In this document: piece by piece, positions 2,367 through 56,579 of the stretch
Position numbering within the stretch: the first letter of the stretch is position 1
How the letters are laid out: the number at the start of each line of letters is the position of its first letter
Origin: Eledone cirrhosa
Taxonomy: Eukaryota
Direction: 5' to 3'
Length of the DNA stretch: 64,000 nucleotides
NCBI GenBank assembly: GCA_964016885.1
Contig: OZ024766.1
Location: forward strand, 13,888,001 to 13,952,000
Program-made: the position numbers and the translations under genes
The notes under the pieces: generated by a model
What the model was told of the DNA's origin: nothing
Seen by the model: only the letters and a program-made list of their open reading frames with translations
Databases searched by the model: none

Positions 2367-5300
2367 CTAGCTGACGTACCCAGCTTCGCCAGGGTAAACA
2401 GATGATAAGAGAAGACAGGTAAAAGAGAAAATGTCTGTATTGGATGTTTGTCTGGTTACAGTGTGAAGCGAGTCCGTGTTGTCTGTGTGATACAAAAAAA
2501 CTGTAAAAGAAATCTTCCAGATATACCAGATTCTTCGTTGTCCGGTTTGTGCATAGTATATGAACAATTCTAGGTGCTCCCACCTAGAATAGTGACCTCT
2601 AGGAGATGGTTCCTCTTCGGCCTGACTGGAAAACGTGTATCATTGCATAGACGTGGTTGTTCCACGTTTCTCAAAAGGATGATGGAAGTTCCAATCTTTT
2701 ATATTATATGTAGATATAGATATAGATAATTAATAAAAAAGATGTCCGTCAATGTAAAGAAGGTCCCTATTTACTTGAAATGGTTTATACAAATGCCAAA
2801 TTAATATGGATATGGATAACATGCTTATCTATAAGTGGTCAGCTATAATAATAATCCAACAAATTATATGACACAAAAATTTATTCAGTAATTTCCAGGC
2901 TCTTAGCCACTGAGTAATAGACAGTCAATATTGCCCAGATTTCAACTCGGGGAGGTGGCCTGGTTTGAACTCAAAATGGCGGATCCTTCTACTTCGAAAA
3001 TAGAATGGTTTTTCAATATTACTCTAGCCCTGGCCGGCCATAGGCACCAAACTTTTTGCCAGACTCAGCATATGATGAGGTTTTATTACCACTGCAATCA
3101 GAAGCGATAAATTTGAAGGCAATTTCTACCAATACTTGTTGGTTTTTATTGCTCATTATCGACAATAAATGACATTGAACATAAATGATAACTCTGCCAA
3201 AGCTCACAATACAGATGAAAGGAAACCAATGTCCGAATCATATACGTCGCTTATTGATAGCATTAAAGATATGCATACATCAGCTCAAAGCTTCATTATA
3301 GACAATATTTAGGTTTGTTCCTCTGTTAGTGGTATCAATTGCAAATTTTATACCATCAGGATCGCACACTCGAGATGCAGCAACATAGAGTTGCCCATGG
3401 CTGGATCATTCAAGCAGATACCGACTCGCTTGAAAGTCTGTCCCTGTGCCTTGTTGACAGTCATGGAGAAGGCCAAATTGACGGGAAACTGTCTCCTTTG
3501 CCAAATAAATGGCAGCAGATCTTCACTTGGTCTCAGCATGATCCTCGGAATGAGAACCGATGCCTCTCTGCCTGGGAGTTTAGCTTCTAAAACTCTTCCG
3601 TTAATCAATCTCTCAACAATCAATCTGGTACCATTGCAAAGACCCATTTTATGATTGATATTTCTAAGCAATATAATCGGCAAACCCTTTTTCAACCTCA
3701 AAATATGTGGGGGAAATCCGGGTATTTGAAGTGAATTCAGATACTCAGTCGGAACATCCATACTGTTCTGCTGATTAGGCTCCATTGCATCCGCACTGAC
3801 GGTCAACCATTCCTCTCCAGGAAACATTCCGGCTACTTGTGAATTTATTTCATCGACCGTTGCATTCGTATGAGTTAGAATAACACGTTCCGATATTCAG
3901 GAGATATTCTGCCAAAAAGCATTCAAATTAGGGAACACCCAGTCAATCAAGCCTTGGCGGTCCAGTGGCATGACCAAATGGTCTGGGATTTATACAGTCT
4001 GATTATCACCAACGTGTGGCAATTCATCGTTTCCCAACTGCATCAACCATCGGCCGTATGTCTCAGCCTCTTCGTTTTGCCCGAACATAGGAAGTCGCAT
4101 ATTATCGTGTAATCGCAAAACTCTGAAATGGCGCCACAACGGGGACTTTTTCAGACATGCATTGACAATTTGTGCTCTTTGAGCATTCCTAACAATTGGT
4201 AGCACCTGTCTGAAATCGCCACCAAGAACGATAGTCTTACCACTGAATGGCAGGTCACTACCGCAGATATCTCTCAAAGTTCTGTCCAATGCCTCCAGCA
4301 AATATCTGTGTGCCATTGGAGCCTTGTCCCAAATAATCAGAGACGTATTGCGTATAAGGCCCGCGAGTTCACTTTGTCCTGTAATATTACAGAAACTCAA
4401 CTTATCTGGAGCCAATGGAGCCTTGAAGCATGAGTGGAAGGTCCTTCCACCACTCAGCAAAGTGGCAGCGATGCCCCTGGTGGGCACAGGGAGAGCAATC
4501 TTCCTCTGAGCTCTGACTGCCGATAACATAGTGTTGAAACAGAATGTCTTTCCGGTGCCTCCTGGAACATCTATGAAAGCACAAAGTTGCTCATTAGTGG
4601 AAATCGAGTGGAGAGCGCCATCAACCAATTCTCTGTGAGATTGGGTCAACATTGGCATACGTTCATCCACAATACGTTGCTGTTCCAGTGGATCAAACTG
4701 GAATAGTTCCCTCCGATCGAGTGGCAACCATCTAAGCTGCAATCTCATGTTCAATGCTAAGACACGTTGCCGCATTTCTTCATCAGGAATTGGTAAATTG
4801 AAATCTGTTAAACATTTCAAATGAACTTCGAGCAGTTGCTCAATATTGAGCAAAACAATAGCTTTCAGCAAATTTTCATCATAGACCTAAAGATGATGCC
4901 TAAAATCATCAGCCATAATTCCCCAATGGCGTTCAAATAACTCTCTTGGATCGGCAGGATTGCAGAATCCTAGAATCGTGACAAACAACTGCCTTATTCG
5001 AGCTGGCATCTGTGTTGTTCCTGCAGCTTCCATGGCGTTATACCATTCAGCGTCATCCTGAAGGAGTCCCAGATGCTGACACACAGCCTGGTATCTTTTA
5101 TATTCCACGCCATTGATTGTTTTCAAATCAGCGAAGCTCTGTTTACCTCTCGAAAAATCACTATGCAACAGAATTCGGAGATAAAACACATCACCAGATG
5201 CTGGATGGACATTACAAACCCGTCCAATAGTCATGAATCTCAACTTTTGTTTTCTATCATTCCATTTCTTTCCCTTCTTATCCCACGTATAGTGCGAAGG

Positions 5301-7407
5301 GAAATCACAGTAGAGTTGCTTTTGATCCGGGTTCAAAGCATGTTCCCTATTATGCTTGAACCACTCAGTCAATTCCGTCTTAGGAGGTGGTGCGTTAGCA
5401 ATTCTTTCGATACCTCTTCTAGTGTCCTTAAAACAGACCATTTGCCTATTTTCTAAGTGAACCGTCAGTTTCTGAACACTGTGTTTGCGTTCATTGAGAT
5501 CAAAATCGAACAATCTCCAGCAAGCTTCGCTAGATCCAATCGAGCGAACATCCTGGAACCTGCCAACTTCATCTCCTTGGTTCACTTCCTCATTCCTGAC
5601 ATTCATCATTGCCCCATCATGACCTTTGTAAACATATTTGAATAGATATTTGCAAGCTTTCACTGAGCTACAAATTTCCACATTAATATGACAACGATAT
5701 TTCATAATCAAATATGGATTGTATGGCACAACCCATTGATTTGTAACCTGTCGACCGTTTACATTTTCGACCAAACCACCATCGGCAGGCGACCGTCTTC
5801 TGTATGAGGGATGAGCATCCCCATCATTCCAGGAAGTGTTCGTGACAAAAGATTTCGGAAAGTGCTTACTGCATTGGCCATTTTTCATGCAAGGCGCTTT
5901 CCGATTTGCCACTCCGCATTGGTTGTGCACCATTGACTTTGCCACCAAGTTGCATAGTGCCTCATTCTCCGGCAGTTCAGCACACACAATGCTGTCGACA
6001 TCCTCAGCACATCACAATTTGCTATCTCTATGTAAAATGATCAGCAAATGTGCATGTGGCAATCCTCTTTTTTGGAATTCAATTACGTATGTAAAAGCAA
6101 CTATACCTCCAAAGATTCCCTCTTTTTCCACATCATCCATTATCTTTTTCAGATATCCTTTGAATACTCTTGCCACAATATCAGGACGGTCCTTTGCCGT
6201 TCAAGTTCAGTTATATTTCCCGGCAACTTCATCCAACCGATCCTGATATCCTCCTCCGATTCACTATAATCTGGATCGTTAACGTAAATTTGAGCGAATC
6301 AAGGCCTCTCTCCTGGGGTAACTTCTAAATTACCGATACAATGATACAAACGGCATTGAATGACGACATTCGGTTGCCATGCTCCACTCTCAAATATCTC
6401 ACTAACTCTCTGCGATGCTAAAGCTAATAAATTGTTAATTTGCCCCGAATATTTGCGCAGTAATCTACCTCGGTCTCATTGATCACCCCACATACTTAGT
6501 ATTTTAAACACTGGTGACTCCCCATCATCCGGCATTCGCAAAGGTTCTAGTTGAACTGCTCCTTTGTGACAGCACATTGTGGTCCACGTCTTTTCGTGCC
6601 ACCAAAGCAATGCTCCACAATGTGGAGACCCTGCTCGTCCACCAATCTGACAATGACACGGTTGCCATGATCCATTTTTAATATCATTCGTTCGCCTTCT
6701 AGCCTCTTTACTGGAATGAGGAGCACTTTGCGACACATTCCCTGAACTTCTGTATTGCGCTGGCGCTGTTCAGCCAGCTCCTCTTCATCCACCGGAGCAC
6801 GCCATTGCTGCTGAATTCTGGCCACCTGCTGATGATGCTCAGCCAGTTCGTTTTTCAACCATCGCAGCACTCCGTCGCCGCTGTAGTTCACTGTTTGATA
6901 AAGTCGAATTGCTTTTCTTATCAGTATTCATTTGGAGCAATTGTAAAAAAAAATGACACAATAATAAATATAAAAGATGTCCGTCAATGTAAAGAAAGGT
7001 CTCTATTTACTCCCTTCACAACTCTGTGTATGACAGACAGGCACACAGACAGATAAACTGCGCGGCGATTGTGGAACGTCACACGCATACACGCATGGAA
7101 ACGCGCACATGCACGCAAACTTACACACGCACACACTCACACATGTTGATAGTTTTTACTTTCTGTGGAACACTGCACGCACGCACACACACATAAACAT
7201 ACGCGCACATACATACACACGCATACATGTTAATAGTTATTGAACACAGCGTTCACACTCTCCCCTCTCACTCCCTCATTGGCATTATGCATATTAATTT
7301 CAGTTTGGCGTCGTTGGGGTGGGCGGAGTCGTTTGAAACCTATGAACCAATGATAATCGAGAATTGTGACACACGGAATACTGACGTTCTTCAAATTAAT
7401 AAATAGA
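2367..7407 (-). mobile_element. Near full-length Helitron (rolling-circle transposon), decayed
   Basis: A|TC 5' end at 7407; 3' hairpin ACCCTGGCGAAGCTGGGT then CTAG at 2370-2367; RepHel coding remnants inside. Confidence 0.93.
3300..6891 (-). pseudogene. Helitron RepHel (HUH Rep endonuclease + PIF1-family SF1 helicase), frameshifted
   Basis: EFQKRGLPHAH HUH motif (about 6050-6085), YLFKYVYKG motif (ORF 4887-5987), PGGTGKT Walker A and GGDFRQVLP (3990-4871), LLRNINHKMGLCNGTRL and FSMTVNKAQGQT (3348-3827). Confidence 0.93.

Positions 7408-13647: not shown

Positions 13648-13650
<3 letters not shown>
12608..13650. repeat. Large foldback: about 410-bp inverted arms with an internal direct repeat
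   Basis: 13251-13650 is the reverse complement of about 12610-13020; 13055-13250 repeats 12610-12808; a related copy lies at 25612-25890. Confidence 0.85.
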
Positions 13651-13733
<83 letters not shown>

Positions 13734-13861
13734 ATTATATAGAACAATAAAATATGGCACCAGATGTTCAACCCAAGACCTTATGATTGAGAACAGCACA
13801 CCTGTAACCTCTAAGCTATATATCTTCACACAGACTTTCTGATAAAGACAGAAGTACCCAC

Positions 13862-13999
13862 CTGACTGACAGTTGTCTCCCCTGAAACCAGCTGCACATC
13901 CAACACTAGAACACACCCCAGATTTAATGTCGCAATGATCGTTGTCAGCACAGTGGCACAAATACTGACAGTTCAAGCCAAAATAACCCTTTTTACATT
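13862..13999 (-). CDS. Internal exon encoding EGF/laminin-EGF-like repeats (MEGF10/11 or scavenger-receptor-F-like)
   Basis: (T)nCAG acceptor, G|GTGGGT donor, 138 nt, phase 1-1, open frame CKKGYFGLNCQYLCHCADNDHCDIKSGVCSSVGCAAGFRGDNCQS. Confidence 0.85.
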
Positions 14000-14127
14000 C
14001 TGAAAAAAAAAAAAAAAAAAAAATAGAATTATATACACAACATATATATAAAATTATACACAATAACACATATATACAATGATACACAGCTATAACATAC
14101 ATATACACAATTATACATAACTATAAT

Positions 14128-37857: not shown

Positions 37858-38094
37858 AGGGTATAAAGTGGTGGTGTAAAGTGATAGAGTTGCTGCCACA
37901 ATAAAATACACCTTGTTCACTCTGTAAAGTAGTCATGAGGGTTCCACAATAAAATGCACCCTGTCCACTCTGTAAAGTGGTTGTCATTGAAAACGTCATC
38001 CAGCAATGTCTGGTCCCGTTTCATGACAACACAAGCCATCCAACTAATGCTAGAATGGAACACAGATATAAGATGATGATGATGATGATAGAGA

Positions 38095-38300
38095 CTAGTT
38101 TTTCTCTGAATCTAGGCAACGAAGAGCATCATAACATTCTGCTGTGTCCAGAGCTTCTTTCAGAGTGGCTATGGTGCATTCTTCTGGTTCACACTTTTCA
38201 CTCCATTTGAGCAACATATGTAAAGCCTGTTTCACAACATCATTAGGATTGTTAAGCTTGATTGTGTCAAGTTCAATAGCTGGAACTCCTAATTGAATAC
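38095..38300 (-). CDS. ANK-RING-Death gene, coding exon 6 (Death domain C-terminal part, TAG stop)
   Basis: TTTTACAG acceptor, phase 1; GIQLGVPAIELDTIKLNNPNDVVKQALHMLLKWSEKCEPEECTIATLKEALDTAECYDALRCLDSEKN*. Confidence 0.88.
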
Positions 38301-39411
38301 CTGTAAAATATAAAACAATAACAAACCAATACTACAACAACAATAACAACATTAAACAAATTAGTTATATAAAATATGTATACCACAGGTTGTTGTAAAT
38401 AACAAATTAACTAGCTGTAGAGTAATAGAAATAATTAACATAAACATTCTAAAATATTGTTGTATGTTTCCAAGGATACCGACAAAAATAAAGAAGTTGA
38501 AGTGAGGAGAAGAAAGAAGAACAAGATTAAAGAAAATAGACTTGAGAAAATTATGGCAAAGAAATGGCAGAAGTTTTTGTATTGTCAGAACTTGTTCAGA
38601 ATTTAAATATCCAACATTGATAACCAACATTCCCAACATGTCATCCATAGGAAAGGTTTAAAGGATGAGATTGAAGACCCCTCAATAACATCACAAGATC
38701 AGTGTCTGAAATAGTCAGGGTTCTGCCTAAAATCTACCAAGACGTCAATGACAAGTGACAAATATTTCCTCATCCTCGCTACTAAACTTAATAGACATGT
38801 TGAGTAGCACCAAGGTGGCTCTCTTGGAGTACATGATGGCTAGAGGTATGGCTTGAGGGATCAAGACTCCTACAGTTCTGTGATGTAAATGACTTCAAGA
38901 TATCAGCCAGTCATTTGATCAGGTAGACATACAAGCTAGATTAACTTTATTCTCATCAGAAAACAAATAGACAGATGGTTGTAAACATTAAATCTTTTTC
39001 CAGAGAAGGAAGCCTTTGATAGAGAGTGTGGACAAAGGAAGACCATAACCTTAACAATAAGACTACACCATCTCATAAGACAAAGATGACTGAAGAATGA
39101 AGGAGTAACAATCTCTAGGAAGAATGTAGGGTGGTCACACCTGGAACACCCTCCATTATAAATCTGCAGATCATGGCAGAACCGAGACTAAATAACAATA
39201 ACAACCTATCTGTAGATTGAATGTTTCAATAAAAACAAACAAAAACATTCCCATTAACTCACATGTTTACCCCAATACACCAACAGATTTTTATTCCCTG
39301 TTTTAGAAGACAATATTAGTTATATTGTGTCTTCTAATTTATCCATTTTTACCAATTCAGTTAAAAGTAAACTTTATAGAAATCAACAAGATACTGTAAT
39401 CTTATACTCAC

Positions 39412-39483
39412 CAGCTTTAAACCAGTCACTCACTAATGTTTTCGCTACCTTTAAAAGGACTTTCACAGTTATCTGTTGAGACC
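39412..39483 (-). CDS. ANK-RING-Death gene, coding exon 5 (Death domain helices 1-2)
   Basis: TTTTCAG acceptor, G|GTGAGT donor, 72 nt, phase 1-1; SQQITVKVLLKVAKTLVSDWFKA. Confidence 0.85.
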
Positions 39484-40860
39484 CTGAAAAAATATTTCCA
39501 AGTTTTTTTCATTTTACTGTAAAGATTTTCTATTGCTGTTTATAATCTATATTTTATATTTTCAGACATTCCTATTATCAGAAGTCAACTAGTGATCACA
39601 ATGGTTTTAGTCAATATTTTCTCTTCTTGTTAAACTTTATAAATATTTTCTATCTATAAAAACATCTTATTTTCTATCTATAAAAACATCTTATATTACA
39701 TTATGGTAATTATCTCATTTCACTATCAGCTGATTATACATTTGTTTTTCTCATAGCTTTGTCTTTCACTTATGCCAAATCTACAATATAGCATCACTGT
39801 CCTAGCCACAAATTCATGATAGCCAACATGAAATAGGAGTAGATACACTGCTTTCCTTGAGAAAGGTTGATGTTGGCACTCTTTAGTGTAAACTGACCAC
39901 ATCTGTGTTCACCAGAATGTCATCTGATTCATGTAATATTTACAAATATTTACATGTCATGTGTCCTCCATAATGATACAGGATCTTATCGGTGAGCACT
40001 GATTATTCTATACAGGTGAGAAGGAAAGTGATAACAGGTGTCCTAAAACACTGTACACTTACACAAATCCTCATTAGCTCCCTTTAACAAGTCATCTCTA
40101 CATTAATGCAGTGAAAATATCTGAAAAGGATCCATGAAATGACCCCAACATTATAAATTATCTCCTACAGACCCCTTATATAAATAAATCATAGTTTCTC
40201 AAATCTTTGCTGACCTCTCCATCAATACAGTGGACATCAGTAGCGGGAGAAGCCAACTACCTGAAAATTTGAGGAAGTAAAAGTTACACCTGTCTTTTAG
40301 ACATTTGTCAGTTCTAACAATGAGTGTTCCAATTGTTTGAATAACAGAGCAGTTTACTCATGTAATTAAGGTGCAAATGGCTGAGTATTCCATAGACATG
40401 TACACCCATAGCGTAATTCTCAGGGAGAATCAGTATGGCACAGTGTGTGACAAAGCTGGTCCTTTTAATTACAGGTACAGTCCATCTTGTATTATAGTGA
40501 GAGTGGCTGAGTATTCCACAGACATATGTTCTCTTAACGTGATTCTAAGGGAGATTCAGTGATATGTTGTATGTGATATAGCTGGCCCATTGAATTACAG
40601 TAACAATAACGGTCACTATTATTATAATTCTCAGGGAGATTCAGCATAACAAAGTATGAAACAAAGCTGGTCTTTTGAATTACAAATACAACTCATTTTC
40701 CCATCTAAGTAGACTGAAGTAACATGAAATAAAGTGTCTTGCTCAAAGATACAATATGTTCCTGGGAATTGAACTCAGAACCTTATGATCATGAGACAAA
40801 CACACTAACCACTAAGTCATGAATGGAAATATACAGACAGATTATCAAATAATTACTTAC

Positions 40861-41039
40861 TAAATTCATCCACCGTACATACATTCATTCCACACTGTGG
40901 ACAATGTTCAATTGTGGAACAACATTTTCCACAAGCCACTTTATGTGGACATGGAGTGGATGTATTGGTGGCTTTATTAATCTGACATGGAGTGGATGTA
41001 TTGGTGGCTTTATTAACCTTACATGGGGGACATACAGCT
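40861..41039 (-). CDS. ANK-RING-Death gene, coding exon 4 (C3HC4 RING finger)
   Basis: TTTTACAG acceptor, A|GTAAGT donor, phase 2-1; CPPC..PCPHKVACGKC..CPQC. Confidence 0.88.
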
Positions 41040-41449
41040 CTGTAAAAGAAAATAAAGATACAACTCACCAACAACATTAATTTACACCAAATATTACATT
41101 GTATACAAGTTTACAGAGATTATGTGTGAAGGTTATAACAACCTCTCTAGTATTGGTGACATGATAAAATACAACCAGTACACTCTGTAATGTGGTTGCT
41201 AATAGGAAGGGCTTCCTGTCATACAAAACTTTCCAAACAAAGGATAGAGAGGATTCTGTAGTGGTTTCAAAGACATGACAACATCCCTAGTGCTGGTGCC
41301 ATGATTAAATCAGCAGTGCCTTTCATGATGATGATGATGCTGATTTATAATAAAAGGTGGGATTTGAACTCAGAACGTTCAGGACCATAACTCTATGCTG
41401 CAAAGCATGGTGTGTGACGCTCTACTGATACTGCCAATCCATATTCAAT

Positions 41450-41760
41450 AATAATAATGAAAATTATTGTGTACAATGCTCAGGTGCAATACAACTCATC
41501 AAAGGTTCATGTATTGTACATAGAGTAATGTAGAAATATCAGGAAAGTGAACAGTGATTGAGTCATGATATACACACACATGCGTGCATGTATGGAGGTG
41601 AGGATATCAGGTGTAGTGTTGGAGAATTTCAGGAAGGATGGAGGTGTTAAAGGATGCAGTGTCCTGACAGCTAACAACTGATGCAGGTAGTTGGTTCCAT
41701 GCTTCAGTAACTCTGAGCATGAAAAGATGTTTCTGAAAGTCATGGGGTCTGTACTGTTTT
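41450..41760 (-). mobile_element. CR1-like LINE 3' fragment
   Basis: Reverse-complement match to 57270-57575. Confidence 0.8.
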
Positions 41761-42483
41761 CCTGCTATTTCTTGGCTTAAAGCAGAAATCAGTTGTCAAA
41801 CTTCCACAACTTCTGCATTGAGGGTCTATTTTTGTTGTTGTTGTTGTTGATGTTCTTCAACAGGAATGGTAGGGGAAGACATGGTAGTTGGTTTGTGTTG
41901 TTGTTCAACAGCAATGGTATAGGAAGACACACAGGCCAGGGACTGAAAGGACCAATTTGGTAGCTGCACCTTTTCCTAGAATCCATCCATCATCGAAATA
42001 GGGTGTCTCTTTTTTTGACCTGGGATCTTTGGAATGTTTATGGCACATTGACGACAGAGAGAAACATGACATTTACCACATTGAATCTATTTTGGAAATA
42101 GTTCTTGGGTTCGGTACATAGATGACAGACGTGATTTTCCTGGCAATCTTCTATTTTGGGACAGAGAACAGTTTTATTACACACCCCTCATCTATGGATG
42201 TCACCATAGCAATTATGTTCTGTCTGTCCATCCATACAATACAACAATAGGTAAACAAATAGATATGTCTAAGTATAACACACTTGTTAAGGAGATCAAT
42301 AAAATATATTTTCTTTCTGTTTTCCTATTCTACGTGTGTGTGTATATAAAAAGATCTACACATGTATATATAATTAAGAGATGTATATAGGCTAGAAATG
42401 AAGTCTATGTCCAGTGTTTATAATGTAGGTACGATAGTTACTATAGTTTCTCACACACTAAACAGGATTTCCTTGCACTTTCT

Positions 42484-42592
42484 GTGTGTATATATATGTG
42501 TGTGTGTGTATATATATATGTGTGTGTGTGTGTGTATCTACATATATATGTGTGTGTATATCTAGGTATATATATATATATGTGTGTGTATC

Positions 42593-42629
<37 letters not shown>

Positions 42630-42703
42630 GTGTGTGTATGTGTGTGTATCTACATATATATATATATATAGATACACACACACACCCATATATATATGTA
42701 GAT

Positions 42704-42735
<32 letters not shown>

Positions 42736-45700
42736 GTACAGACACACACATACACATATATATATATATGTGTGTGTGTGTGATCTACATATATATGTGT
42801 GTGTATCTACATATATACATATATGTATGTGTGTGTGTGTGTGTATCTACATATATGTGTGTGTGTGTGTGTATATCTACATATATGTGTGTGTGTGTGT
42901 GTGTGTATCTACATATATATATATGTGTGTGTGTGTATCTAGATATGGGTGTGTGTGTGTATCTACATATCTACATACATATGTGTGTGTGTGTACATAT
43001 GTGTGTGTGTGTATCTACATACATGTATGTGTGTGTCTGTGTGTGTATCTACATGTGTGTGTGTGTGTCTACATATGTGTGTGTGTGTATCTACGTATAT
43101 ATCTGTGTGTGTGTCTGTGTGTATCTACATATGTGTGTGTGTGTATATCTACATATATATGTGTGTGCGTGTGTGTATCTACATATATATGTGTGTGTGT
43201 GTGTGTGTATCTACATACATATATGTGTGTGTGTATCTACATACATATGTGTGTGTGTGTATATCTACATATATGTGTGTGTGTGTATCTACATATATGT
43301 GTGTGTGTGTATCTACAAATGTGTATGTGTGTGTATCTATATATATGTGTGTGTGTGTGTATCTACATATGTGTGTGTGTGTGTATCTACATATATGTGT
43401 GTGTGTGTATCTACATATATATGTGTGTATGTGTGTATATCTACATATATGTGTGTGTGTGTGTATCTACATATATATGTGTGTGTGTGTATATCTACAT
43501 ATATGTGTGTGTGTGTATCTACATATGTGTGTGTGTGTGTGTGTATCTACATATGTGTGTGTGTGTATCTACATATGTGTGTGTGTGTATCTACATATAT
43601 ATATGTGTGTGTATCTACATATATATGTGTGTGTGTGTATATCTACATATATGTGTGTGTGTGTGTGTGTATCTACATATGGGTGTGTGTGTGTGTATCT
43701 ACATATCTACATATATATGTGTGTGTGTGTATCTACATACATATGTGTGTGTGTGTGTGCATATGTGTGTGTGTGTGTGTACATATGTGTGTGTGTGTAT
43801 CTACATACATGTGTGTGTGTGTATCTACATATATGTGTGTGTGTGTGTACATATGTGTGTGTGTGTATCTACATACATATGTGTGTGTGTGTGTGTATCT
43901 ACATATATGTGTGTGTGTGTGTACATATGTGTGTGTGTGTATCTACATACATATATGTGTGTGTGTGTGTGTATCTACATATATGTGTGTGTGTGTACAT
44001 GTGTGTGTGTATCTACATACATATATGTGTGTGTGTGTGTGTATCTACATATATGTGTGTGTGTGTGTATCTACATATATGTGTGTGTGTGTGTATCTAC
44101 ATATGTGTGTGTGTGTATCTACATATATATGTGTGTGTGTGTGTGTGTATCTACATATATGTGTGTGTGTGTATCCACATGTGTGTGAGTATCTACATAT
44201 ATGTGTGTGTGTATCTACATATGTGTGTGTGTGTATATCTACATATATATGTGTGTGTGTGTATATCTACATATGTGTGTGTGTGTATATCTACATATAT
44301 GTGTGTGTGTGTAACTACATATATATGTGTGTATGTGTGTATATCTACATATATGTGTGTGTGTGTATCTACATATATGTGTGTGTGTGTATCTACATAT
44401 GTGTGTGTGTATCTACATACATATATGTGTGTGTGTGTGTGTGTGTATCTACATATATGTGTGTGTGTGTGTGTACATATGTGTATGTGTGTATCTACAT
44501 ACATATATGTGTGTGTGTGTGTGTATCTACATATATGTGTGTGTGTATGTACATATGTGTGTGTGTGTGTATCTACATACATATACGTGTGTGTGTGTGT
44601 ATCTACATATATGTGTGTGTGTGTACATGTGTGTGTGTATCTACATAATATATGTGTGTGTGTGTGTGTGTATCTACATATATGTGTGTGTGTGTGTATC
44701 TACATATATGTGTGTGTGTGTGTATCTACATATGTGTGTGTGTGTATCTACATATATATGTGTGTGTGTGTATCCACATGTGTGTGTGTGTGTATCTACA
44801 TATATGTGTGTGTGTGTATCCACATGTGTGTGTGTATCTACATATATGTGTGTGTGTATCTACATATGTGTGTGTGTGTATATCTACATATATATGTGTG
44901 TGTGTGTATATCTACATATGTGTGTGTGTGTATATCTACATATATGTGTGTGTGCGTAACTACATATATATGTGTGTATGTGTGTATATCTACATATATG
45001 TGTGTGTGTGTATCTACATATATGTGTGTGTGTGTGTATCTACATATGTGTGTGTGTGTATCTACATATGTGTGTGTGTATCTACATATGTGTGTGTATC
45101 TACATATATATGTGTGTGTGTATCTATATATGTGTGTTTGTGTATCTACATATGTGTGTGTGTGTATCTACATATATATGTGTGTGTGTATCTACATATG
45201 TGTGTGTGTGTGTGTGTGTGTATCTATATATGTGTGTGTGTGTATCAACATATATATGTGTGTGTGTATCTACATATGTGTGTGTGTGTATCTACATATA
45301 TGTGTGTGTATCTACATATGTGTGTGTGTGTATATCTACATATATATGTGTGTGTGTGTGTATATCTACATATATGTGTGTGTGTGTGTGTGTATCTACA
45401 TACATGTGTGTGTGTGTGTGTATCTACATATATTTGTGTGTGTGTGTACATATGTGTGTGTGTGTATCTACATACATATATGTGTGTGTACATATGTGTG
45501 TGTGTGTATCTACATACATATATGTGTGTGTGTGTGTGTATATCTACATATATGTGTGTGTGTGTGTATCTACATATATATGTGTGTGCGTGTATCCACA
45601 TGTGTGTGTGTATCTACATATATGTGTGTGTGTGTATCCACATGTGTGTGTGTGTGTATCTACATATATATGTGTGTGTGTGTGTGTATCCACATGTGTT

Positions 45701-47818
45701 TGTGTATCTACATATATGTGTGTGTGTGTATCTACATATGTGTGTGTGTGTATATCTACATATATATGTGTGTGTGTGTATATCTACATATGTGTGTGTG
45801 TGTATATCTACATATATGTGTGTGTGTGTATATCTACATATGTGTGTGTGTGTGTGTGTATCTACATATGGGTGTGTGTGTGTGTGTATCTACATACATA
45901 TGTGTGTGTGTGTACATATGTGTGTGTGTATCTACATACATATATGTGTGTGTGTGTGTGTGTATCTACATATATGTGTGTGTGTGTACATATGTGTGTG
46001 TGTGTATCTACATACATATATGTGTGTGTGTGTGTGTGTGTATCTACATATATGTGTGTGTGTATGCACATATGTGTGTGTGTGTGTATCTACATACATA
46101 TATGTGTGTGTGTGTGTGTATCTACACGTGCGTGTATGTGTGTGTATATCTACATGTGTGTGTGTGTGTATCTACACGTGCGTGTATGTGTGTGTATATC
46201 TACATATGTGTGTATGTGTGTGTATATCTACATATATGTGTGTGTGTGTATATCTACATATATGTGTGTGTGTGTGTATCTACATATATATGTGTGTGTG
46301 TGTGTGTGTATCTACATATGTGTGTGTGTGTGTGTGTGTATCTACACGTGTGTGTGTGTGTGTGTATCTACATATGTGTGTGTGTGTGTGTGTATATCTA
46401 CATATGTGTGTGTGTGTGTGTCTACATATATGTGTGTGTGTGTGTGTGTATCTACATATATGTGTGTGTGTGTGTGTATCTACATATGTGTGTGTGTGTG
46501 TGTATCTACACATGTGTGTGTGTGTATCTACATATGTGTGTGTGTGTGTATCTACACATATGTGTGTGTGTGTGTGTGTGTGTATCTACATATGTGTGTG
46601 TGTGTGTGTGTATCTACATATGTGTGTGTGTGTGTGTATCTACATATGTGTGTGTGTGTGTATATCTACATATGTGTGTGTGTGTGTGTATATCTACATA
46701 TGTGTGTGTGTGTGTGTATCTACATATGTGTGTGTGTGTGTGTGTATGTACACATGTGTGTGTGTGTATCTACATATGTGTGTGTGTGTGTATCTACATA
46801 TGTGTGTGTATCTACACATATGTGTGTGTGTGTGTGTGTGTATCTACATATGTGTGTGTGTGTATGTACATATGTGTGTGTGTGTGTGTGTATGTACATA
46901 TGTGTGTGTGTGTGTGTGTATCTACATATGTGTGTGTGTGTGTGTGTATCTACATATGTGTGTGTGTGTGTGTGTATCTACATATATATGTGTGTGTGTG
47001 TATATCTACATATGTGTGTGTGTGTGTGTGTATATCTACATATGTGTGTGTGTGTGTGTGTATCTACATATGTGTGTGTGTGTGTGTGTATGTACATATG
47101 TGTGTGTGTGTGTGTGTATCTACATATGTGTGTGTGTGTGTGTGTATCTACATATGTGTGTGTGTGTGTGTGTGTATGTACACATGTGTGTGTGTGTGTG
47201 TGTATCTACATATATGTGTGTGTGTGTATCTACATATGTGTGTGTGTGTGTATCTACATATGTGTGTGTGTGTGTGTGTATCTACATATGTGTGTGTGTG
47301 TGTGTATCTACATATATGTGTGTGTGTGTGTGTATGTACATATGTGTGTGTGTGTGTGTGTATCTACATATATATGTGTGTGTGTGTGTATGTACACATG
47401 TGTGTGTGTATGTACACATGTGTGTGTGTGTGTGTATCTACACATGTGTGTGTGTGTGTGTGTGTATGTACACATGTGTGTGTGTACACATGTGTGTGTG
47501 TGTGTGTATGTACACATGTGTGTGTGTGTGTATGTACACATGTGTGTGTGTGTGTGTGTGTATCTACACATGTGTGTGTGTGTGTGTGTGTATGTACACA
47601 TGTGTGTGTGTGTGTGTGTGTGTATGTACACATGTGTGTGTGTGTGTGTGTGTATCTACACATGTGTGTGTGTGTGTGTGTGTGTATCTACATATGTGTG
47701 TGTGTGTGTGTGTATGTACACATGTGTGTGTGTGTGTGTATGTACACATGTGTGTGTGTGTATGTACACATGTGTGTGTGTGTGTGTATGTACACATGTG
47801 TGTGTGTGTGTGTACATG
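42484..47818. repeat. 5.3-kb compound microsatellite: (TG)n punctuated by TATCTACATA/TATGTACACA
   Basis: Direct inspection; lies in intron 3 of the ANK-RING-Death gene. Confidence 0.97.
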
Positions 47819-47989
47819 TTGTTGTTTAGACAATACTTACAGCAGTAAGTATATGTATTAAGTCCCATCATTAAAGAGACAACATAAGGAGGCCCCATGG
47901 TGGCATTTTGACATTAATGGCTGAATAAAAACCAGAGATTATTGAGTAAAAGAAAGAAATGTTGATATTCCATATCATTGTTAACTTAC

Positions 47990-48342
47990 TGTTCCATTGT
48001 TCCTCCTGCAGCTCTGTCACCTGGAACAGGGCTGGCATGAGACCCCAACATCTCTATTATAGCTCGGTGTCCTCCACGTTTGGCCAGTTGTAAAGCTGTC
48101 TCACCTTCGTCATTTACAATACTTAAGTCTGTTTCTGGCCTTGACAGCAACACCGCCACAATCTCTGTATCTCCCCCAATTACAGCCACATGTAAAGGCG
48201 TATTATCATTACAATCCCTCATATTCGGGTCAGCCTCCCCGGCTATCAATAGCTTTACCATGGCAACACTCCTCCCCCTCCCCCACCACCCCCCTGCAGC
48301 CACATGTAAAGGTGTGAACCCACTTCTATCTCCTTGATTGAT
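47990..48342 (-). CDS. ANK-RING-Death gene, coding exon 3 (ankyrin repeats 3-5)
   Basis: TTTTCAG acceptor, CA|GTAAGT donor, phase 0-2; GFTPLHVAA, DNTPLHVAV, GETALQLA. Confidence 0.9.
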
Positions 48343-49177
48343 CTGAAAATGTAAAAATATATTAAATATGGTGGGAGTGAGAGTGAAGGGGAGAGTATGT
48401 AGTAAGAGAGGGGGCGAGTGGAGGTGTGGGGAGAGAATTAACAATAGACGAGAGAGAGAGAGAGGGGAAGAGAGAGAGTGAGAGCGGTAAATAGAGAGTG
48501 AGTAAGACAGAGTAAAAGAGTGAGAGAGAGGGAGAAATAGAGAGCGAGGGGAGAAAAGAGGGAGAGAGAGGGGAAGAAAAGTGAGAGAGAAAGAGAGAGT
48601 GAGAAATTCGTATCTGTAACACCCCCCCCCCGTCCTTCTTAGATTTTTGTATTAAATAAATAGATTAATTCACACACACACACACACGTAGACAGATACA
48701 CATACACACAGAAATACATAGAAAGATACACATATATACTCACACACAGACACATACATACATACATACACAGACATATTCGTAGACCGATACACACGTA
48801 TATACACACAGAGAGTAACACACATACACACACAGACAGTCACACACGGACACACAGACAGACACACAGACAGTCACACACGCACACAGAAGTCACACAC
48901 GGACACACAGACAGACACACACATACACACACACACACACAGACAGTCACACACACACACAGACAGTCACACAGACACACACACACGGACACACAGACAC
49001 AAACAAATCCATACAGAGTGGTAGTAGCAGTAAGAGTAGACAACAGTGATAGTAGGAGGAAGGTGTGACGTCATAAGATAGACGCTACAGAAAGAAATGG
49101 TGGAAATATGTAAATGTCTCTAATTTGAGTTAAGTTTGACTTATTTCTCTCATTTAATGACAGAAATATGACAATAA

Positions 49178-49698
49178 TCTATATATATAATTCCCGTTCT
49201 GTGTGTGTGTAAAAGAGTTTCACTTGGAAAATATTCCATCCATCTCTGTCAAATTAAACACATAGCCAAAATAGGCTACGGTCTGTAACATAAAGAAAAA
49301 ATTATTTCATAATGATTAATTTCGAAGTCACAAACTTCGATTTTATAATCTTATAGGCTTTTGCACTAACAAATTCCATGACGGCCATTAAAGAGAGAGA
49401 GCGTTCCTTTTACACACTTCTTAACTGTCCCCCTTCCACAACACGACGTTATGGGATGGTATGTGTATGTGCGTGTGTATATGTGTGTGTATGTGTTTGT
49501 GTGTGTATGTGTGCGTGCATGTGTGTGTGTGTGTGTGTAATTTCCATAACGGCCAGAGAGAGAAGGATGTGTGAGAAGGGGATAGAAAGAGAGGAGTGAA
49601 AGAGAGAGAGAGAGTAAAATAAAGAAAGAGAGGAGTGTGTGTGACTTAACTCTCCCCCTTCCACAACGTCACGTCTTGGGATTATGTGTGTGTGTGTA

Positions 49699-49729
<31 letters not shown>

Positions 49730-52301
49730 TTGTGTGTGTGTGTACGTGCGTATGTGTGTGCATGTGTGTGTGCATGTGTGTGTGTATGTGTATAAATGTG
49801 TTAATCGTAAGAAATAACAGACGATACTTTAGCGATAAATACAGTGTTTATAATTTTAACTTATTTATTTACACTTAACTCTCCCCCTTCCACAACGTCA
49901 CGTCTTGGGAGTGTGTGTGTGTATGTGTGTGTGTGTGTGTGTGTATGTGTGTATGTGTGTGTGTATGTGTGTATGTTTGTGTGTGTATGTGTGTGTGTGT
50001 ACGTGCGTATGTGTGTGCGTGTGTGCATGTGTGTGTATAAATGTGTTAATTGTAAGAAATAACAGACGATACTTTTTATTCAAAAAATTAAACTCTAAAG
50101 CAGTTTTGATGTCATAAATCATATTTTCAAAGTGAAAATCGTCATTTCTTTAATACTTATTCAGAGGTTGAAATATATTTACTGTTTGTCTTTTGGTTTT
50201 TAATCAAATATTTACACATTGCTCAACCGACACTGCTAAACACGATATTAGCAAAATTATTTTGTAAGTATGAAAATCTAATATATAATTCCCGTGTAGA
50301 AAAAGCAGATGATAAAATATACTTTTTCGTCTTGCTTATTATTACAAAAATTTACACATTGTACACAACTATTTATTTCTTTTAATTGATTTGTATCAGC
50401 TTTATTCAATTACATATTTTCGGTAGAATGCCTCGAAAAAGAAAGAGTAACATTGGAAAAAAAACAAAAAATGCTTTTGCTTTGCGTTCTTTGCGCGCAA
50501 GCGAAACAGAAGAACAATGTGTGCTACGGCGTGCTCGCAATGCTGCTTCTACCTCGATCGCCAGAGCATTACAAACAACTGAACAAGCAGAACTCCAGCG
50601 TGCTCACAATGCTGCTTCTACTTTGAACATCAGAGCATTACAGAAAGCTGAACAAGCAGAACTCCGGCGTGCTCGCAATGCTGCTTCTAATTCCAATAGC
50701 CGTGCTTTAGAGACTGTTGACCAAAGGGCAACAAGGCTTGCGGCTGATTCTCAACGGAAAATGCGTACTTATGTCTTTCCGAGGGATTCTTCCTGTTACT
50801 GGTCTAACAAAGGTTTTCAATACAACCCCCAAGAGGACTACGCATCCCATCCACATATCATCATTGGTAGTATGTCAACTGTTTGCGTCCATTGTAATGC
50901 AATGAGGTGGCCAGCGGAATCTACCGGTATATGTTGCTCCAAGGGAACGGTTAGATTGCCTTATTTACAAGTCGGTGCCGAACCTTTGAATTCTTTGCTG
51001 CTTGGAGACCACCCTGATTCTAAACACTTTTTCAGAAATATAAGAGCCTACAATTCGGCTTTCCAAATGACAAGCTTTGGTCATACACCAATAAAAGATG
51101 GGAATTATATGCCCACATTTAAAGTGCAAGGCCAAATTTACCATCAAATAGAATCACTTATTCCACAAGATGGCAAAGAACACAGTTTTCTCCAGATCTA
51201 CTTTATGGGCAACGGACCTGAAGAAATTGCACGAAGGGCTTCAGTTGCTAAAGGAACGACACCTTCTCTTCTGCAGCCCCTTCAATATATGCTTCATTCC
51301 ATAAACCCGTACATCATCATTTTCAAAACTGCTTTACAACGTAGAGATGCTAACAACAATCAATACAAGGTTGTCATTCGAAATGACCGCGCTCCACCAG
51401 GGCAACATCAGGGTTGCTTTAATAGACCCCAAACCGATGAAGTTGCGGTGATTATAACACGTCCTAATCAGAGCGCTTCAAACCGTGATATTGTTATTGA
51501 ATGGCAGGACTCGCATCTTCAAAAAATAAATGAACTTCATCCCGCATATGATGCTCTCCAGTATCCATTGCTGTTCCCCTTTGGCGACGATGGCTACCGC
51601 ATTGATTTGCAAAAGTGTAATCCTGTAAGTTTAATGCATCTTACACCAGGGAAAACCATTTCACAAATGGAATTTTATGCATTTGTGAAAAACGACGTCA
51701 ATATTCTGCATAGAACACGGATGCTCCTCAATCAATACTGTGTAGACATATTTGCTAAGATTGACACTGAACGCCTCCAATGGATAAGACATCATCAAAA
51801 GGAACTGCGTTCAGAAGAATACGGCAATCTACGTGACAAAGTAAACCGAAATGATCAGGCTAATGCTTCGGATGTTGGGCTTTCTGTCATTCTCCCATCA
51901 TCATACACTGGAGGCCCCCGTTACATGCATGAAAAAATGCAGGATGCTCTGACCTATGTCCGCCATTGTGGCCGTCCTGATCTTTTTATCACCTTTACAT
52001 GCAATCCAAAATGGTTTGACATCCAGTCTCATTTACTGTTTGTCTTTCGGTTATTAATAAAAAAAATTACACATTGTTCAACCGACACGGCTAACGATAC
52101 ATTTCTCTATGTTCACATTTTAATGACACATATCTGTAAATAAAACTTGCTCTTTTTGAATACCGTCTCATTTTGTTTTATTGAAAGAGTTGATCAGGTA
52201 AAATTATCCTCCAAGTTAAACATACAACACGGAAATTGACCATTAACATTGCAGCCCTACCAAGAACTGACACCGTCCAATGGACGGGGGTCATTTGCTA
52301 G
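49178..52301 (+). mobile_element. Internally deleted Helitron in intron 2 of the ANK-RING-Death gene
   Basis: A|TC 5' end at 49178; 3' hairpin CCGTCCA-A-TGGACGG then CTAG|T at 52298-52302; internal about 230-bp tandem units at 49420-50080. Confidence 0.9.
50428..52143 (+). CDS. Helitron RepHel N-terminal half (Helitron_like_N, up to Rep motif I), truncated but open
   Basis: MPRKRK start, CVHC..CCSKG zinc motif, IRAYNSAFQMTSFG, YDALQYPLLFPFG, LPSSYTGGPRYM, GRPDLFITFTCNPKW; no HUH or helicase. Confidence 0.88.
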   Translation: MPRKRKSNIGKKTKNAFALRSLRASETEEQCVLRRARNAASTSIARALQTTEQAELQRAHNAASTLNIRALQKAEQAELRRARNAASNSNSRALETVDQRATRLAADSQRKMRTYVFPRDSSCYWSNKGFQYNPQEDYASHPHIIIGSMSTVCVHCNAMRWPAESTGICCSKGTVRLPYLQVGAEPLNSLLLGDHPDSKHFFRNIRAYNSAFQMTSFGHTPIKDGNYMPTFKVQGQIYHQIESLIPQDGKEHSFLQIYFMGNGPEEIARRASVAKGTTPSLLQPLQYMLHSINPYIIIFKTALQRRDANNNQYKVVIRNDRAPPGQHQGCFNRPQTDEVAVIITRPNQSASNRDIVIEWQDSHLQKINELHPAYDALQYPLLFPFGDDGYRIDLQKCNPVSLMHLTPGKTISQMEFYAFVKNDVNILHRTRMLLNQYCVDIFAKIDTERLQWIRHHQKELRSEEYGNLRDKVNRNDQANASDVGLSVILPSSYTGGPRYMHEKMQDALTYVRHCGRPDLFITFTCNPKWFDIQSHLLFVFRLLIKKITHCSTDTANDTFLYVHILMTHICK

Positions 52302-52814
52302 TTAAATATAAATTAACAACATGTTGCCAATGGATTCTCTACATTTTATTTTGTCTCTCTTGGAAAACTATTTCCATGTGAAAAGAAAGGTTTAATTTGT
52401 CGTCTGTTTGACAGGGTCTTTATTGAGGGGGGGTGCAAGACAGATGTGGTGGCAGTGTTAGTAGAAAATTACAGAGAGAGTGAGGGAGGTGTTTATTGAT
52501 AGTGGCGAAGGTGGAGAACGAGAGGGAAGACAGGGAGGGGGAGGGAATGAGAGAGAGGGAGGGAACGAGAGAGAGAGAAAAAGAGAAAGAGGGATGGAAA
52601 GAAAGAGAGAGAGGGAACGAGAGAGAGAGGTAAGAAGTTAGAGAGAATGAGGAAAGTTTATCTGTCTGTGTGGCTGTCTGTCAGTCTAGCATATAGTTGA
52701 CAAGGGAGATAATCAATTGGACAAACTTGGTGATATTTCGTTTTGAAAGAACATTTTTTGAGAGAGAGAGAACGTCTGAGAGAGTGAGAGAGAGAGAGAG
52801 AGATAGAGAGAACA

Positions 52815-52857
<43 letters not shown>

Positions 52858-52858
52858 A

Positions 52859-52889
<31 letters not shown>

Positions 52890-52892
52890 ACA

Positions 52893-52929
<37 letters not shown>

Positions 52930-53146
52930 GATAAATATATAAATAGAGTGAGGGTGAGAGATAGATAGCTAGGTAGACAGACAGATAGATAGATAAATTG
53001 CCTAGGGTAGATAGGTGGATATTATAGATAGATTGATAAATATACAATGATTTGGAAATATTTTCAGTATTTATCAATAGTGATGGTCATATTGAACAAT
53101 AATCAATAGAATCAGACAAATCTACAGAGTGTATATGTTGACCCAC

Positions 53147-53294
53147 CTTAATAGCAGGTGTGTTCATTAACAACTGTGCAATATCTGTACAGTCCTTAAT
53201 GACGGCCATGTGGAGTGGAGTATACCCGTCTTCATCCTGACAATTTACATCCACTCCAGAGGACAGCAAGGATTTCACCTTTTTATAGTTTTTT
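53147..53294 (-). CDS. ANK-RING-Death gene, coding exon 2 (ankyrin repeats 1-2)
   Basis: TTTCAG acceptor, AAG|GTGGGT donor, phase 2-0; KNYKKVKSLLSSGVDVNCQDEDGYTPLHMAVIKDCTDIAQLLMNTPAIK. Confidence 0.9.
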
Positions 53295-53594
53295 CTGAAA
53301 GTAGTAGAAATAAATACAAATACACATATATAGGAAATGAAGGCACATGGCTTAGTGGTTAGTGTGTTCTACTGAAGATCATAAGGTTGTGAGTTTGAGT
53401 CCTGGGGATGGCTTGTGTCCTTGAGCAAGACATTTTATTACATGATGATCCAGTCTACTCAGCTAGCAAAACTGAGTTGTACCAGTAATACAAAGGGTCA
53501 GCCTTGTTAATCTGCTTATCCTTGAGAACTACAATAAAGGTACACATTCATGTCTGTAAAGTGGTTGGTGATAGGAAGGGCATCCAGACCAGGA

Positions 53595-54185
53595 TACTGG
53601 AATAGCCTAACACCCTCATCTAGGAACATCAACTGATACATCAGTAAGGACCAGTGATGGTGAGGCTGAGATGCTGAAAGAGCCAAGCACCTTCACCGAG
53701 GAGCATCAAGTGACACATCAGTAAAGCATGGTGATGGTGAAACTAAGATACTGCAATAGCCAAGTACCCTCACCTATGAGTATCAACTGATATATCAATA
53801 AAGCATGGTGATGGTGAGGCTGAGATACTGGAATAGCCAAGCACCTTTACATAAGAGCACCATGAGATACATCAGTGAAGCCAAGTGATGGTGAGACTGA
53901 GATACTGGAATAACCAAGTTCTCTCACCAGGGAATATCAACTGGTATGACCGTAAGGCCTGGTGATGGTGAGGCTGAGATGCTGGAATAGCCAAGCACCT
54001 TTACATAAGAGCACCATGAGATACATCAGTAAAGCCAGGTGATGGTGAGACTGAGATACTGGAATAACCAAGCTCTCTCACCAGGGTGTATCAACTGGTA
54101 TGACCGTAAGGCCTGGTGATGGTGAGGCTGAGATGCTGGAATAGCCAAGCAGCCTCACCACCAGGAACATCACCTGATACATTGG
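53595..54185. repeat. Diverged about 60-bp tandem repeat
   Basis: GGTGATGGTGAGGCTGAGATACTGGAATAGCCAAGCACC recurring. Confidence 0.85.
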
Positions 54186-54294
54186 TAAGTGAAGCCACCA
54201 ACAAGAACAAGAGCCTAATTGTCAATGGCTACCAACTCCCCCATGAAAGTATGAAATAAATCAAACAGAATAGAAATAATTGTTGTAAACTTAC

Positions 54295-54380
54295 TGTAAA
54301 ACAGCTTCATGTAGTGTTATGTTACCAGTTCTGTCTTCCTTTAGCTGTAAACTAGCTGCTGCTCCACTTAATTTCTCCAT
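54295..54380 (-). CDS. ANK-RING-Death gene, coding exon 1 (putative ATG)
   Basis: AAAATGG start context, CA|GTAAGT donor, phase 2; MEKLSGAAASLQLKEDRTGNITLHEAVLQ; an acceptor at 54386-54387 implies upstream exon(s). Confidence 0.8.
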
Positions 54381-54658: not shown

Positions 54659-56579
54659 TGTATATATATATATATATATATGTATACACTCCCGTCCCAC
54701 TAACCCCACCTCCACCGCCATCTACACCACCCCTTTGATGTAAAGCTATGTTTGTACCACAACATCCAGTCCTAAATAAATGAGGTTGTGTAGTTGTCAC
54801 GACAAAAAAACACAGTCCACACTGTAATGTGGCCGTGTAGGTAACACAGTAAAAACCTCCCAGTTCCACACTGTAAACGTGGTTGGTGTTAGGAAGGGTA
54901 CCCAGCCATAGAAAACCCGCCAGACAGTCCTGAGCAAGACAACCAACCTCGCCTCAAGTGGGACAATTCCCGTCCAGACCCATGCTAGCGTGGAAAATGG
55001 ACGTTAAACGATGATGATGATTATGATATATATATATATATGGGTGTGTATGTGTATGTATGTGTGTATATATATATGTGTATGTATGTGTATATATATA
55101 TGTGTATGTATGTATGTGTTGATATCTGTTTGTATGTAGTATATATGGACTGTAGATATATTTACATATAGGGAAGTGAATATGTGAGCCAGCATGTCCC
55201 CCCACCCTTCCTGTCCCAAACCAATATCAACAACACATCTTTGACAAATCTTCCCAAACTATCCTTCTTTTCTCTTTTTCCTGTCATCCCATTCTTATCA
55301 AAAGACATGTATCTTACACCTCATTAAAACCCAGACAAGCACCTAAATTCATCTTTGATATAGAAATTTGTAGAAGATATTCTTTATGGATTTGGAAGAG
55401 TTGATTCAGCTATGCCATTATATACTCATCAAAGGTCAGCTAATGAAATAAAACCAGCAGGAGAGTATGTTTACAACTACCTTCTCAAACACCCTTATCT
55501 TACAACCTCACCATTTTCTGAGTGTATATATGTGTGTGTATGTGTGTATGTGTGTGTGTGTATGCTTTAATTCCTATGGACCTTCATCATCATCAACACT
55601 CATTAACACCACATGCCAACCCCAGACACATCCAAATCTCTCTCTTATATATAGTCACACATTTCAACACAACCTGATCTCAGTTTGACAATCTCCACAG
55701 ACAGAAGAATGCGAGAAAGTTCTCCAACCCAAGTTAACCAGGAATCTATAAAATTCTTCCCACCAAAGTTAAAGAACTTACTGGATCTATCAACTCATAA
55801 TATTATAATATTATAAAAATTAAATCAAACATGTTTTAACACTACAAATGACATCATTCTTTTCCTTTTTTTCAAATATACCTAACTGTACCAAGGATCT
55901 CACACATTTTCAAATATATATATAAATATATATACACATACAAGGGTGAGTCAAAATATAATGCAATTTTTGTCATAGAAAACATACTTCGGCACTGGGC
56001 ATATCAAAAGATCGAAATAATGGAGGTAAACTTTGTTCCATCATTATCTTTTCCTGCTTATTTCAAGATTTAGTTCTATTAAAATGTCCAAATGTCAATA
56101 CTTCCAGCTACGATATAATGGACGCTATATCACATCGTTTATATTTCCATCACTAATTTTCTCCTTTTTCGTTTTCATAAAATTTCACCATGATGCAGTT
56201 TATATATAATATCATCTTTTTTAAATGTATCATGGATTACTTTACTGATTACAGAAGAAAGTGTAACACACTCTCTTCAATTTCTGTGGATATTGTCAAT
56301 TACAATTTTATTTGAGGTATCATATCTACATGTATGTATATTTGTGTATAATATCTATATACACACTACACATGCCAGCAGAAAACCAACCGAAGGGTGT
56401 ATATAACAGCAACAACAACAGAACAAGACAAAGATTACCAGGTAACTTACTTTTTCGTCTATTTTACATTGTTTAGTCTTATATCACTTTCCACATTTTA
56501 CGTATGTGTGTGTATTTATATATATATATATATGCTGTGGTTATCCCGATCTCACTCGGGATCTCTCACACACACACAT

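Follow-up and report, generated by a model that had tools for sequence, protein, structure and literature searches.

Ankyrin repeats are combined with a RING or with a Death domain in several described systems. In Mind bomb 2 (MIB2), ankyrin repeats precede a first RING; a report on MIB2 states that mutation of this RING leaves activity intact and that the last RING is the transferring one (PMC7815719), and a report on MIB1 attributes ubiquitin transfer to the last RING alone, with contacts to the ubiquitin-conjugating enzyme (E2) at V965, M989, P993, I994 and R996 (10.1101/2024.03.01.582834). For fungal NOD-like receptors (NLRs) with ankyrin sensors, positive selection is described on the inner helices and hairpin loops of the repeats (PMC4986451). 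ANKDD1A and ANKDD1B carry ankyrin repeats and a Death domain, as do proteins of the NF-kB p105/p100 type. Here we describe a gene of the octopod Eledone cirrhosa that joins ankyrin repeats, a RING and a Death domain. It lies on the minus strand of a 64,000-nucleotide stretch of a 3.0 Gb genome, which we call the window (contig OZ024766.1, positions 13,888,001 to 13,952,000; G000:C27:13888001-13952000 in our own coordinates, in which contigs are numbered C1, C4 and so on).

This six-exon ankyrin-RING-Death gene is real, and codon comparisons indicate that the ankyrin binding face of six tandem copies is under extreme diversifying selection. With MIB2 the gene shares the order of ankyrins and a related first RING, together with intron positions and phases; unlike MIB2, it lacks the MIB_HERC2/ZZ/REP module and the catalytic last RING, has a Death domain added, and is multi-copy and hypervariable. 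The ANKDD1 and p105/p100 types differ from it in that the window gene has a RING, a lineage expansion and ankyrins that likely trace to MIB2; ANKDD1 clusters appear among its Atlas look-alikes at 0.90-0.92, with low shared-feature counts. Fungal NLRs offer an analogy of working, covering selection on the ankyrin face, repeat shuffling and coupling to a death effector (PMC4986451), but the window gene has no NACHT/NB-ARC domain, carries its effector at the C-terminus and is of unrelated origin. It is neither a Mind bomb nor an NLR, and by analogy would work most like a repeat-sensor immune receptor.

Structure of the gene

The coding part of exon 1 (54295..54380, minus strand, as for all exons) holds the ATG and the start of ankyrin repeat 1, exon 2 (53147..53294) repeats 1-2, and exon 3 (47990..48342), the hypervariable exon, repeats 3-5 and an invariant linker. 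Exon 4 (40861..41039; phase 2 in, phase 1 out) encodes a RING that is degenerate and akin to the first MIB2 RING, exon 5 (39412..39483; phase 1-1) the first part of the Death domain, and exon 6 (38095..38300) the rest of it with the stop codon. An earlier note on this DNA had proposed these exons, and re-derivation returned the same coordinates, GT-AG introns, phases (2,0,2,1,1) and length (1044 nt, 347 amino acids, no internal stop). Its estimate of about five ankyrin repeats was borne out by five repeats starting at residues 22, 54, 88, 126 and 160, with Pfam Ank above cut-off on exons 2 and 3; in an AlphaFold model, exon 3 forms three helix pairs with a mean predicted local distance difference test score (pLDDT) of 87. 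The proposed Death fold is recovered on exon 6 by Pfam Death (PF00531; 28.3 bits, cut-off 22.6) and, over residues 262-346, by a profile of the gene family's own Death domain (103 bits), and has weak matches to PIDD, ankyrin-3 and FADD. Exon 4 departs from the RING of MIB/IAP spacing that had been described: zf-C3HC4_3 stays below threshold (17.7 bits, cut-off 27), and loop 1 has 23 residues instead of 11 because a 36-nt tandem duplication (40948..41026, minus strand; two units here, one to seven in paralogues) lengthens it by 12 residues. All eight zinc ligands are present.

Because the ATG follows an acceptor-like AG by 5 nt, an untranslated exon upstream of exon 1 is likely. A search over about 69 kb found no upstream ankyrin-coding exon. 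At 55914-56059 of the window, a 150-nt block with a donor-like GT, 86-89% conserved upstream of internal and first copies of exon 1, is a candidate for the untranslated first exon. As regards other modules, PF06701 of the MIB_HERC2/ZZ/REP module was found neither in the exons of the window gene nor on C27 (nine matches in the whole genome), and no NACHT/NB-ARC domain was found in these exons or in the scanned Octopus family proteins.

Diversifying selection on the ankyrin face

Selection was analysed in six young tandem copies on C27 in one assembly, using codon models on a fixed tree. Among these copies the difference amounts to 0.34% for intron 1, 0.49% for intron 2 (where 42 of 3346 columns vary), 0.57% for the upstream DNA and 0.68% for the flanks of exon 3; exon 3 itself differs by 6.0% of nucleotides (39 of 322 columns variable), a 12-fold excess of exon over intron difference. 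All 55 sequence-variable codon columns of exons 1-3 change the amino acid, and one more column differs by a gap alone. A tree-free count of one-step codon variants in these exons gives 66 replacement and 0 silent changes (binomial p at most 1.6e-8), or 59 and 0 when a G-rich loop is excluded, in addition to nine multi-step variants. Codon models return an omega of 25 for exon 3 and 34 for exons 1-3 when compared with omega = 1 (p 9e-9 and 8e-12). For the second type of ankyrin exon, the count of 14 to 0 columns is of borderline significance (p 0.048). A Helitron Rep fragment inside intron 2 (50386..52143, plus strand; PF14214), which is not part of the gene, served as the neutral control; over its 1755 nt, 16 variants are replacements and 3 are silent. 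A replacement excess of 66 to 0 alongside introns that are 99.5% identical is an unusually strong signal, and it singles out a handful of residues.

These residues were compared with the six library positions of designed ankyrin repeat proteins (DARPins), numbered as we assume they apply to ankyrin repeats. Variable sites make up 19 of 29 at the six positions and 34 of 135 elsewhere (p 5e-5), an enrichment that grows with the residue after TPLH, which was added afterwards. DARPin repeats retrieved by sequence search vary at the same positions, and a report on DARPins gives the number of randomised positions as six (PMC9611651). In the AlphaFold model, 10 of the 11 exon-3 sites with at least three residues lie in hairpins, loops or inner helices; in the linker after the ankyrins, none of 14 sites is variable. 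The six exon-3 alleles are all distinct, exceeding two haplotypes. Between the window gene and its nearest copy there is no difference in exons 1-2 or intron 1, whereas exon 3 has about 22 replacements. The four-gamete test fails for half of the site pairs (237 of 465), so variants are shuffled between copies. Read from these codon patterns, a fast-changing cytosolic ankyrin face implies a fast-changing binding partner.

Origin of the ankyrin-RING and Death parts

The genome holds a full two-RING Mind bomb gene at G000:C24:25.74-25.82 Mb, and C4 carries three MIB1-type RINGs. Scored with a profile built from Octopus family RINGs, the first RING of MIB2 reaches 61 bits, the top value among 37 rows, and the last one 18; the last RINGs of MIB1 and MIB2 together span 10-18 bits. 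The family clusters with inner Mind bomb RINGs (99/94), and away from terminal RINGs, in a tree of 54 RINGs made from an alignment of 55 columns with rough support, a bootstrap that has not settled and one long unrelated row inside the clade. The exon of the first MIB2 RING has the same phases as exon 4 (phase 2 in, 1 out), and the intron between exons 1 and 2 has a counterpart in MIB2 that agrees in both position and phase. Three intron features are common to family and MIB2 in all, although intron positions within repeats may agree by chance.

The Death domain is closest to that of a kinase-less RIPK1-like gene at G000:C24:15.36 Mb (78.8 bits; the next of seven other Death loci scores 49.8), in which the Death exons are split as in the family. 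The octopod adaptor of this kind (XP_052833014.1) has the closest non-family Death domain tested, with the same two-exon split and phase; unlike the window gene, it is a single adaptor with neither ankyrin repeats nor RING. Pfam found no RHIM in it, and it presumably resembles insect IMD. We infer that the family arose from a duplicate of the half of MIB2 running from the ankyrins to the first RING, and that a RIPK1-like adaptor gene contributed its two Death exons, which took the place of the catalytic last RING. As a separate observation, a single-exon Death gene, FADD-like by eye, lies at G000:C24:25.93 Mb, about 100 kb from MIB2 and on the same contig as the RIPK1-like gene.

Decay of the RING

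At the equivalents of the five MIB1 E2 contacts, the window RING has P, I, P, Q and G, so that two of five are kept. None of the nine matched family RINGs of the genome (one row unmatched) has an I994-type hydrophobic residue or R996; both residues occur in 14 of 20 other RINGs (two unmatched). RING exons on C27 vary from 59 to 359 nt, always in frame: three of six first-cassette exons lack the His, and two second-cassette exons have shrunk to 59 nt. In all 10 RING exons examined, deleted ones included, the reading frame into the Death domain is kept. For the RING exons omega is 0.73, not different from 1. Taken together, the RING of the window copy is likely a spacer relic and is unlikely to work as a ubiquitin ligase.

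The family in the genome and in other octopods

The Death exon has 34 matches in the genome, 27 of them at 53% identity or more; the RING exon has 31 matches and exon 3 seven close ones. We traced six genes on C27 and one on C26, with splice sites kept in all seven. Two of them have a second ankyrin-RING cassette and one a partial second cassette; in two-cassette paralogues exon 1 is also found internally, in frame after the RING exon. On C18, eight regions upstream of RING or Death exons and outside 12.59-12.65 Mb showed no family ankyrin exon within 10-40 kb. A 3-kb block shared with the C26 copy upstream proved to be a long interspersed nuclear element (LINE), not an exon. At G000:C12:9.024-9.048 Mb, 24 tandem units of about 1 kb each carry an exon-2-like ankyrin exon; they resembled alternative exons, but many units have in-frame stops, and the array gives the impression of a pseudo-exon that was captured and multiplied together with part of a mobile element.

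A profile of 16 Death exons, searched against 1.84 billion representative proteins, matched 53. Among the 30 looked up, 25 come from three Octopus species, one from Argonauta, two from deuterostomes and two are unnamed. Octopus vulgaris, O. sinensis and O. bimaculoides hold many ankyrin-RING-Death proteins. A search with one Octopus member gave 24 matches, 20 of them from Octopus, with Ank, RING and Death listed together for nine of the 24; five of nine scanned Octopus ankyrin proteins pass all three cut-offs. Plain word-based protein searches missed the family that the profile found (no match for exon 6, 54 generic ankyrin matches for exon 3). A fold search with an Octopus model gave only ankyrin proteins among the ranks listed, as did a sequence search with P0066.

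In RefSeq/GenBank the Octopus relatives are automatically named MIB1/MIB2-like, ankyrin-like or uncharacterised. The models called 'E3 ubiquitin-protein ligase MIB1/MIB2-like' (XP_029652081.1, CAI9744078.1, XP_014780589.2) have the same ankyrin-RING-Death order as the window gene; best matches among such models reach about 32% identity to the window protein over nearly its whole length, and their RINGs form one tree group with those of the window family (support 90/89). Most Octopus members have a MIB2-like insert after the ankyrins, unlike the window copy, and the RING duplication is specific to the window gene's cluster. P0079, P0092, P0055 and other Octopus models lack the first Death exon, in frame, which suggests skipping of a symmetric exon or annotation gaps. 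The family is therefore present in databases under misleading names and undescribed in the literature searched, although subscription journals and supplements of genome papers may hold a mention. The idea that a compact ankyrin-RING-Death architecture is uncharacterised stands as far as that literature goes; as a novelty of sequence it does not, a multi-copy octopus family being already in RefSeq/GenBank models.

Splicing and transcription

Four public sequencing runs were mapped on 37860-42440 of the window, a stretch outside which exon 3 lies. One of the four, X1, contains a joint that skips exactly 38301-39411, the predicted last intron between exons 5 and 6, in a contig that agrees with exon 6 at every one of 114 letters; X1 is treated as RNA-like solely because the joint appears in it alone. 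No other junction of the window gene was seen among the joints listed for these runs. A decayed, intron-less family copy at G000:C1:208.684-208.690 Mb, partly tandem-repeated, is continuous across the ankyrin-RING, RING-Death and Death-Death junctions; since it aligns in this way, some family member was spliced as ankyrin-RING-Death in the germ line. Of the splicing predicted by the earlier note, the last intron is thus confirmed in X1, and the ankyrin-RING junction is supported at the level of the family.

Two further features of X1 stand apart. A loose end at 41037 resembles the end of a family upstream exon, but the genome contains no exact match to its consensus, and it was not used as evidence. 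Depth in X1 is several hundred over the end of intron 3 and intron 4 (39890-41830) and about 3 above 41990, where the other runs keep 400-1200; the drop possibly reflects an internal start or transcripts of RING-Death-only copies.

A putative intracellular sensor and its alternatives

We favour, at somewhat better than even confidence, an intracellular sensor whose ankyrins would bind a rapidly changing protein of foreign origin and whose Death domain would pass on the signal, because the ankyrin face changes fast, fungal NLRs offer a parallel and mammalian MIB2 acts in TNF death signalling (PMC5912950, PMC7815719). Ligand binding to the ankyrin face would cluster the protein; the clustered Death domains would seed a complex that includes a Death adaptor of the host, either FADD or the RIPK1-like protein, and signalling by NF-kB or caspases would follow. 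New specificities would come from segmental duplication, gene conversion and the gain or loss of cassettes. The lineage-specific adaptor of Death-domain signalling proposed earlier survives here in its architecture, its lineage restriction and its likely link to Death signalling. Its E3 ligase part is not supported for the window copy, and it did not include the main feature, the extreme diversifying selection on the ankyrin face.

Several observations weigh against the sensor. The selection signal comes from six copies of one assembly, and omega over all 12 exon-2 copies is 1.8, not significant (p 0.11). The Death exons are without purifying selection, with an omega of 1.4 in the six C27 copies (not different from 1) and of 1.5 in 19 copies (p 0.08), a neutral-like pattern compatible with relaxed constraint as well as with mixed selection. 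The base of the Death tree lacks resolution, and many family copies are fragments or pseudogenes, some with stops. Both key E2 contacts occur in 6 of 31 Octopus family RINGs (two unmatched), so some members may be ligases. Finally, the selection points to a fast-changing partner, not specifically to a pathogen.

That last point leaves room for an endogenous partner, such as a selfish element, a transposon protein, a germ-line conflict factor or a partner in self/non-self recognition. Diversifying selection names no driver, the intron-less copy testifies to germ-line transcription of a family member, and the genome is rich in Helitrons and LINEs; we nevertheless consider this origin of the selection rather unlikely, since the relationship of the Death domain to the RIPK1-like adaptor, and the role of mammalian MIB2 cited above, point to immune or death signalling. 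A decoy draws on the same ankyrin data: without triggering a signal, the ankyrin face would trap foreign proteins aimed at the signalling of the host, or else Death complexes would be capped by the Death domain. It gains from the many RING-Death-only partial copies and from Death exons without clear constraint, but the frame kept into the Death domain in every RING exon examined suggests that the link from ankyrins to Death matters, and we hold it to be unlikely, if the least so of the alternatives.

An active E3 ligase, as the earlier note had it, would be recruited through Death domains and ubiquitinate ankyrin-bound substrates, possibly destroying pathogen proteins. The eight zinc ligands left in the window copy, a weak match of the RING half to XIAP-type RINGs (E 0.006) and the Octopus relatives with both key contacts speak for it. 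The RING, however, has its place among the inner RINGs of Mind bomb proteins, which are not catalytic, and keeps two of five E2 contacts, its loop 1 carries a 12-residue insertion, sister copies have lost the His or nearly the whole RING in frame, and the omega of the RING exons does not differ from 1, which makes a ligase improbable. Least credible by far is neutral debris of segmental duplication, in which the ankyrin variation would be an artefact of mutation or of assembly. Many copies are indeed decayed, and both a tandem array of pseudo-exons and a retrocopy exist, but the absence of silent changes, the 12-fold exon excess over introns, the clustering of sites, the intact frames, one spliced junction and exon-3 alleles in excess of two haplotypes all contradict it.

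Other features of the window and of related loci

Helitron pieces in the window comprise, besides the intronic Rep fragment (50386-52143, plus strand), a PIF1 helicase region at 3348-6011 (minus strand). At 13650-14120 (minus strand) lies an isolated EGF-like exon that is rich in cysteine and has an acceptor-like start (Pfam EGF_4 weak, E 0.03); it may belong to a neighbouring gene. On C18, a C2H2 zinc-finger array gene adjoins a RING-Death fragment (L098:4401-5435, minus strand).

Implications

Intracellular immune sensing in cephalopods is poorly mapped, and this family has been hidden under names of the 'MIB2-like E3 ligase' kind. In its broadest form, which we put forward tentatively and at less than even confidence, octopods may possess intracellular immune receptors free of a nucleoside triphosphatase (NTPase), built from half of MIB2 and the Death domain of an adaptor. 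These would form a 'natural DARPin library' in the germ line, with a binding face that selection and gene conversion diversify and that is linked directly to signalling by the Death domain. If the sensor model is true, the family would be an animal parallel to the fungal ankyrin NLRs, minus the NTPase, and a case in which the conversion of a ligase into a receptor by exon shuffling can be traced.

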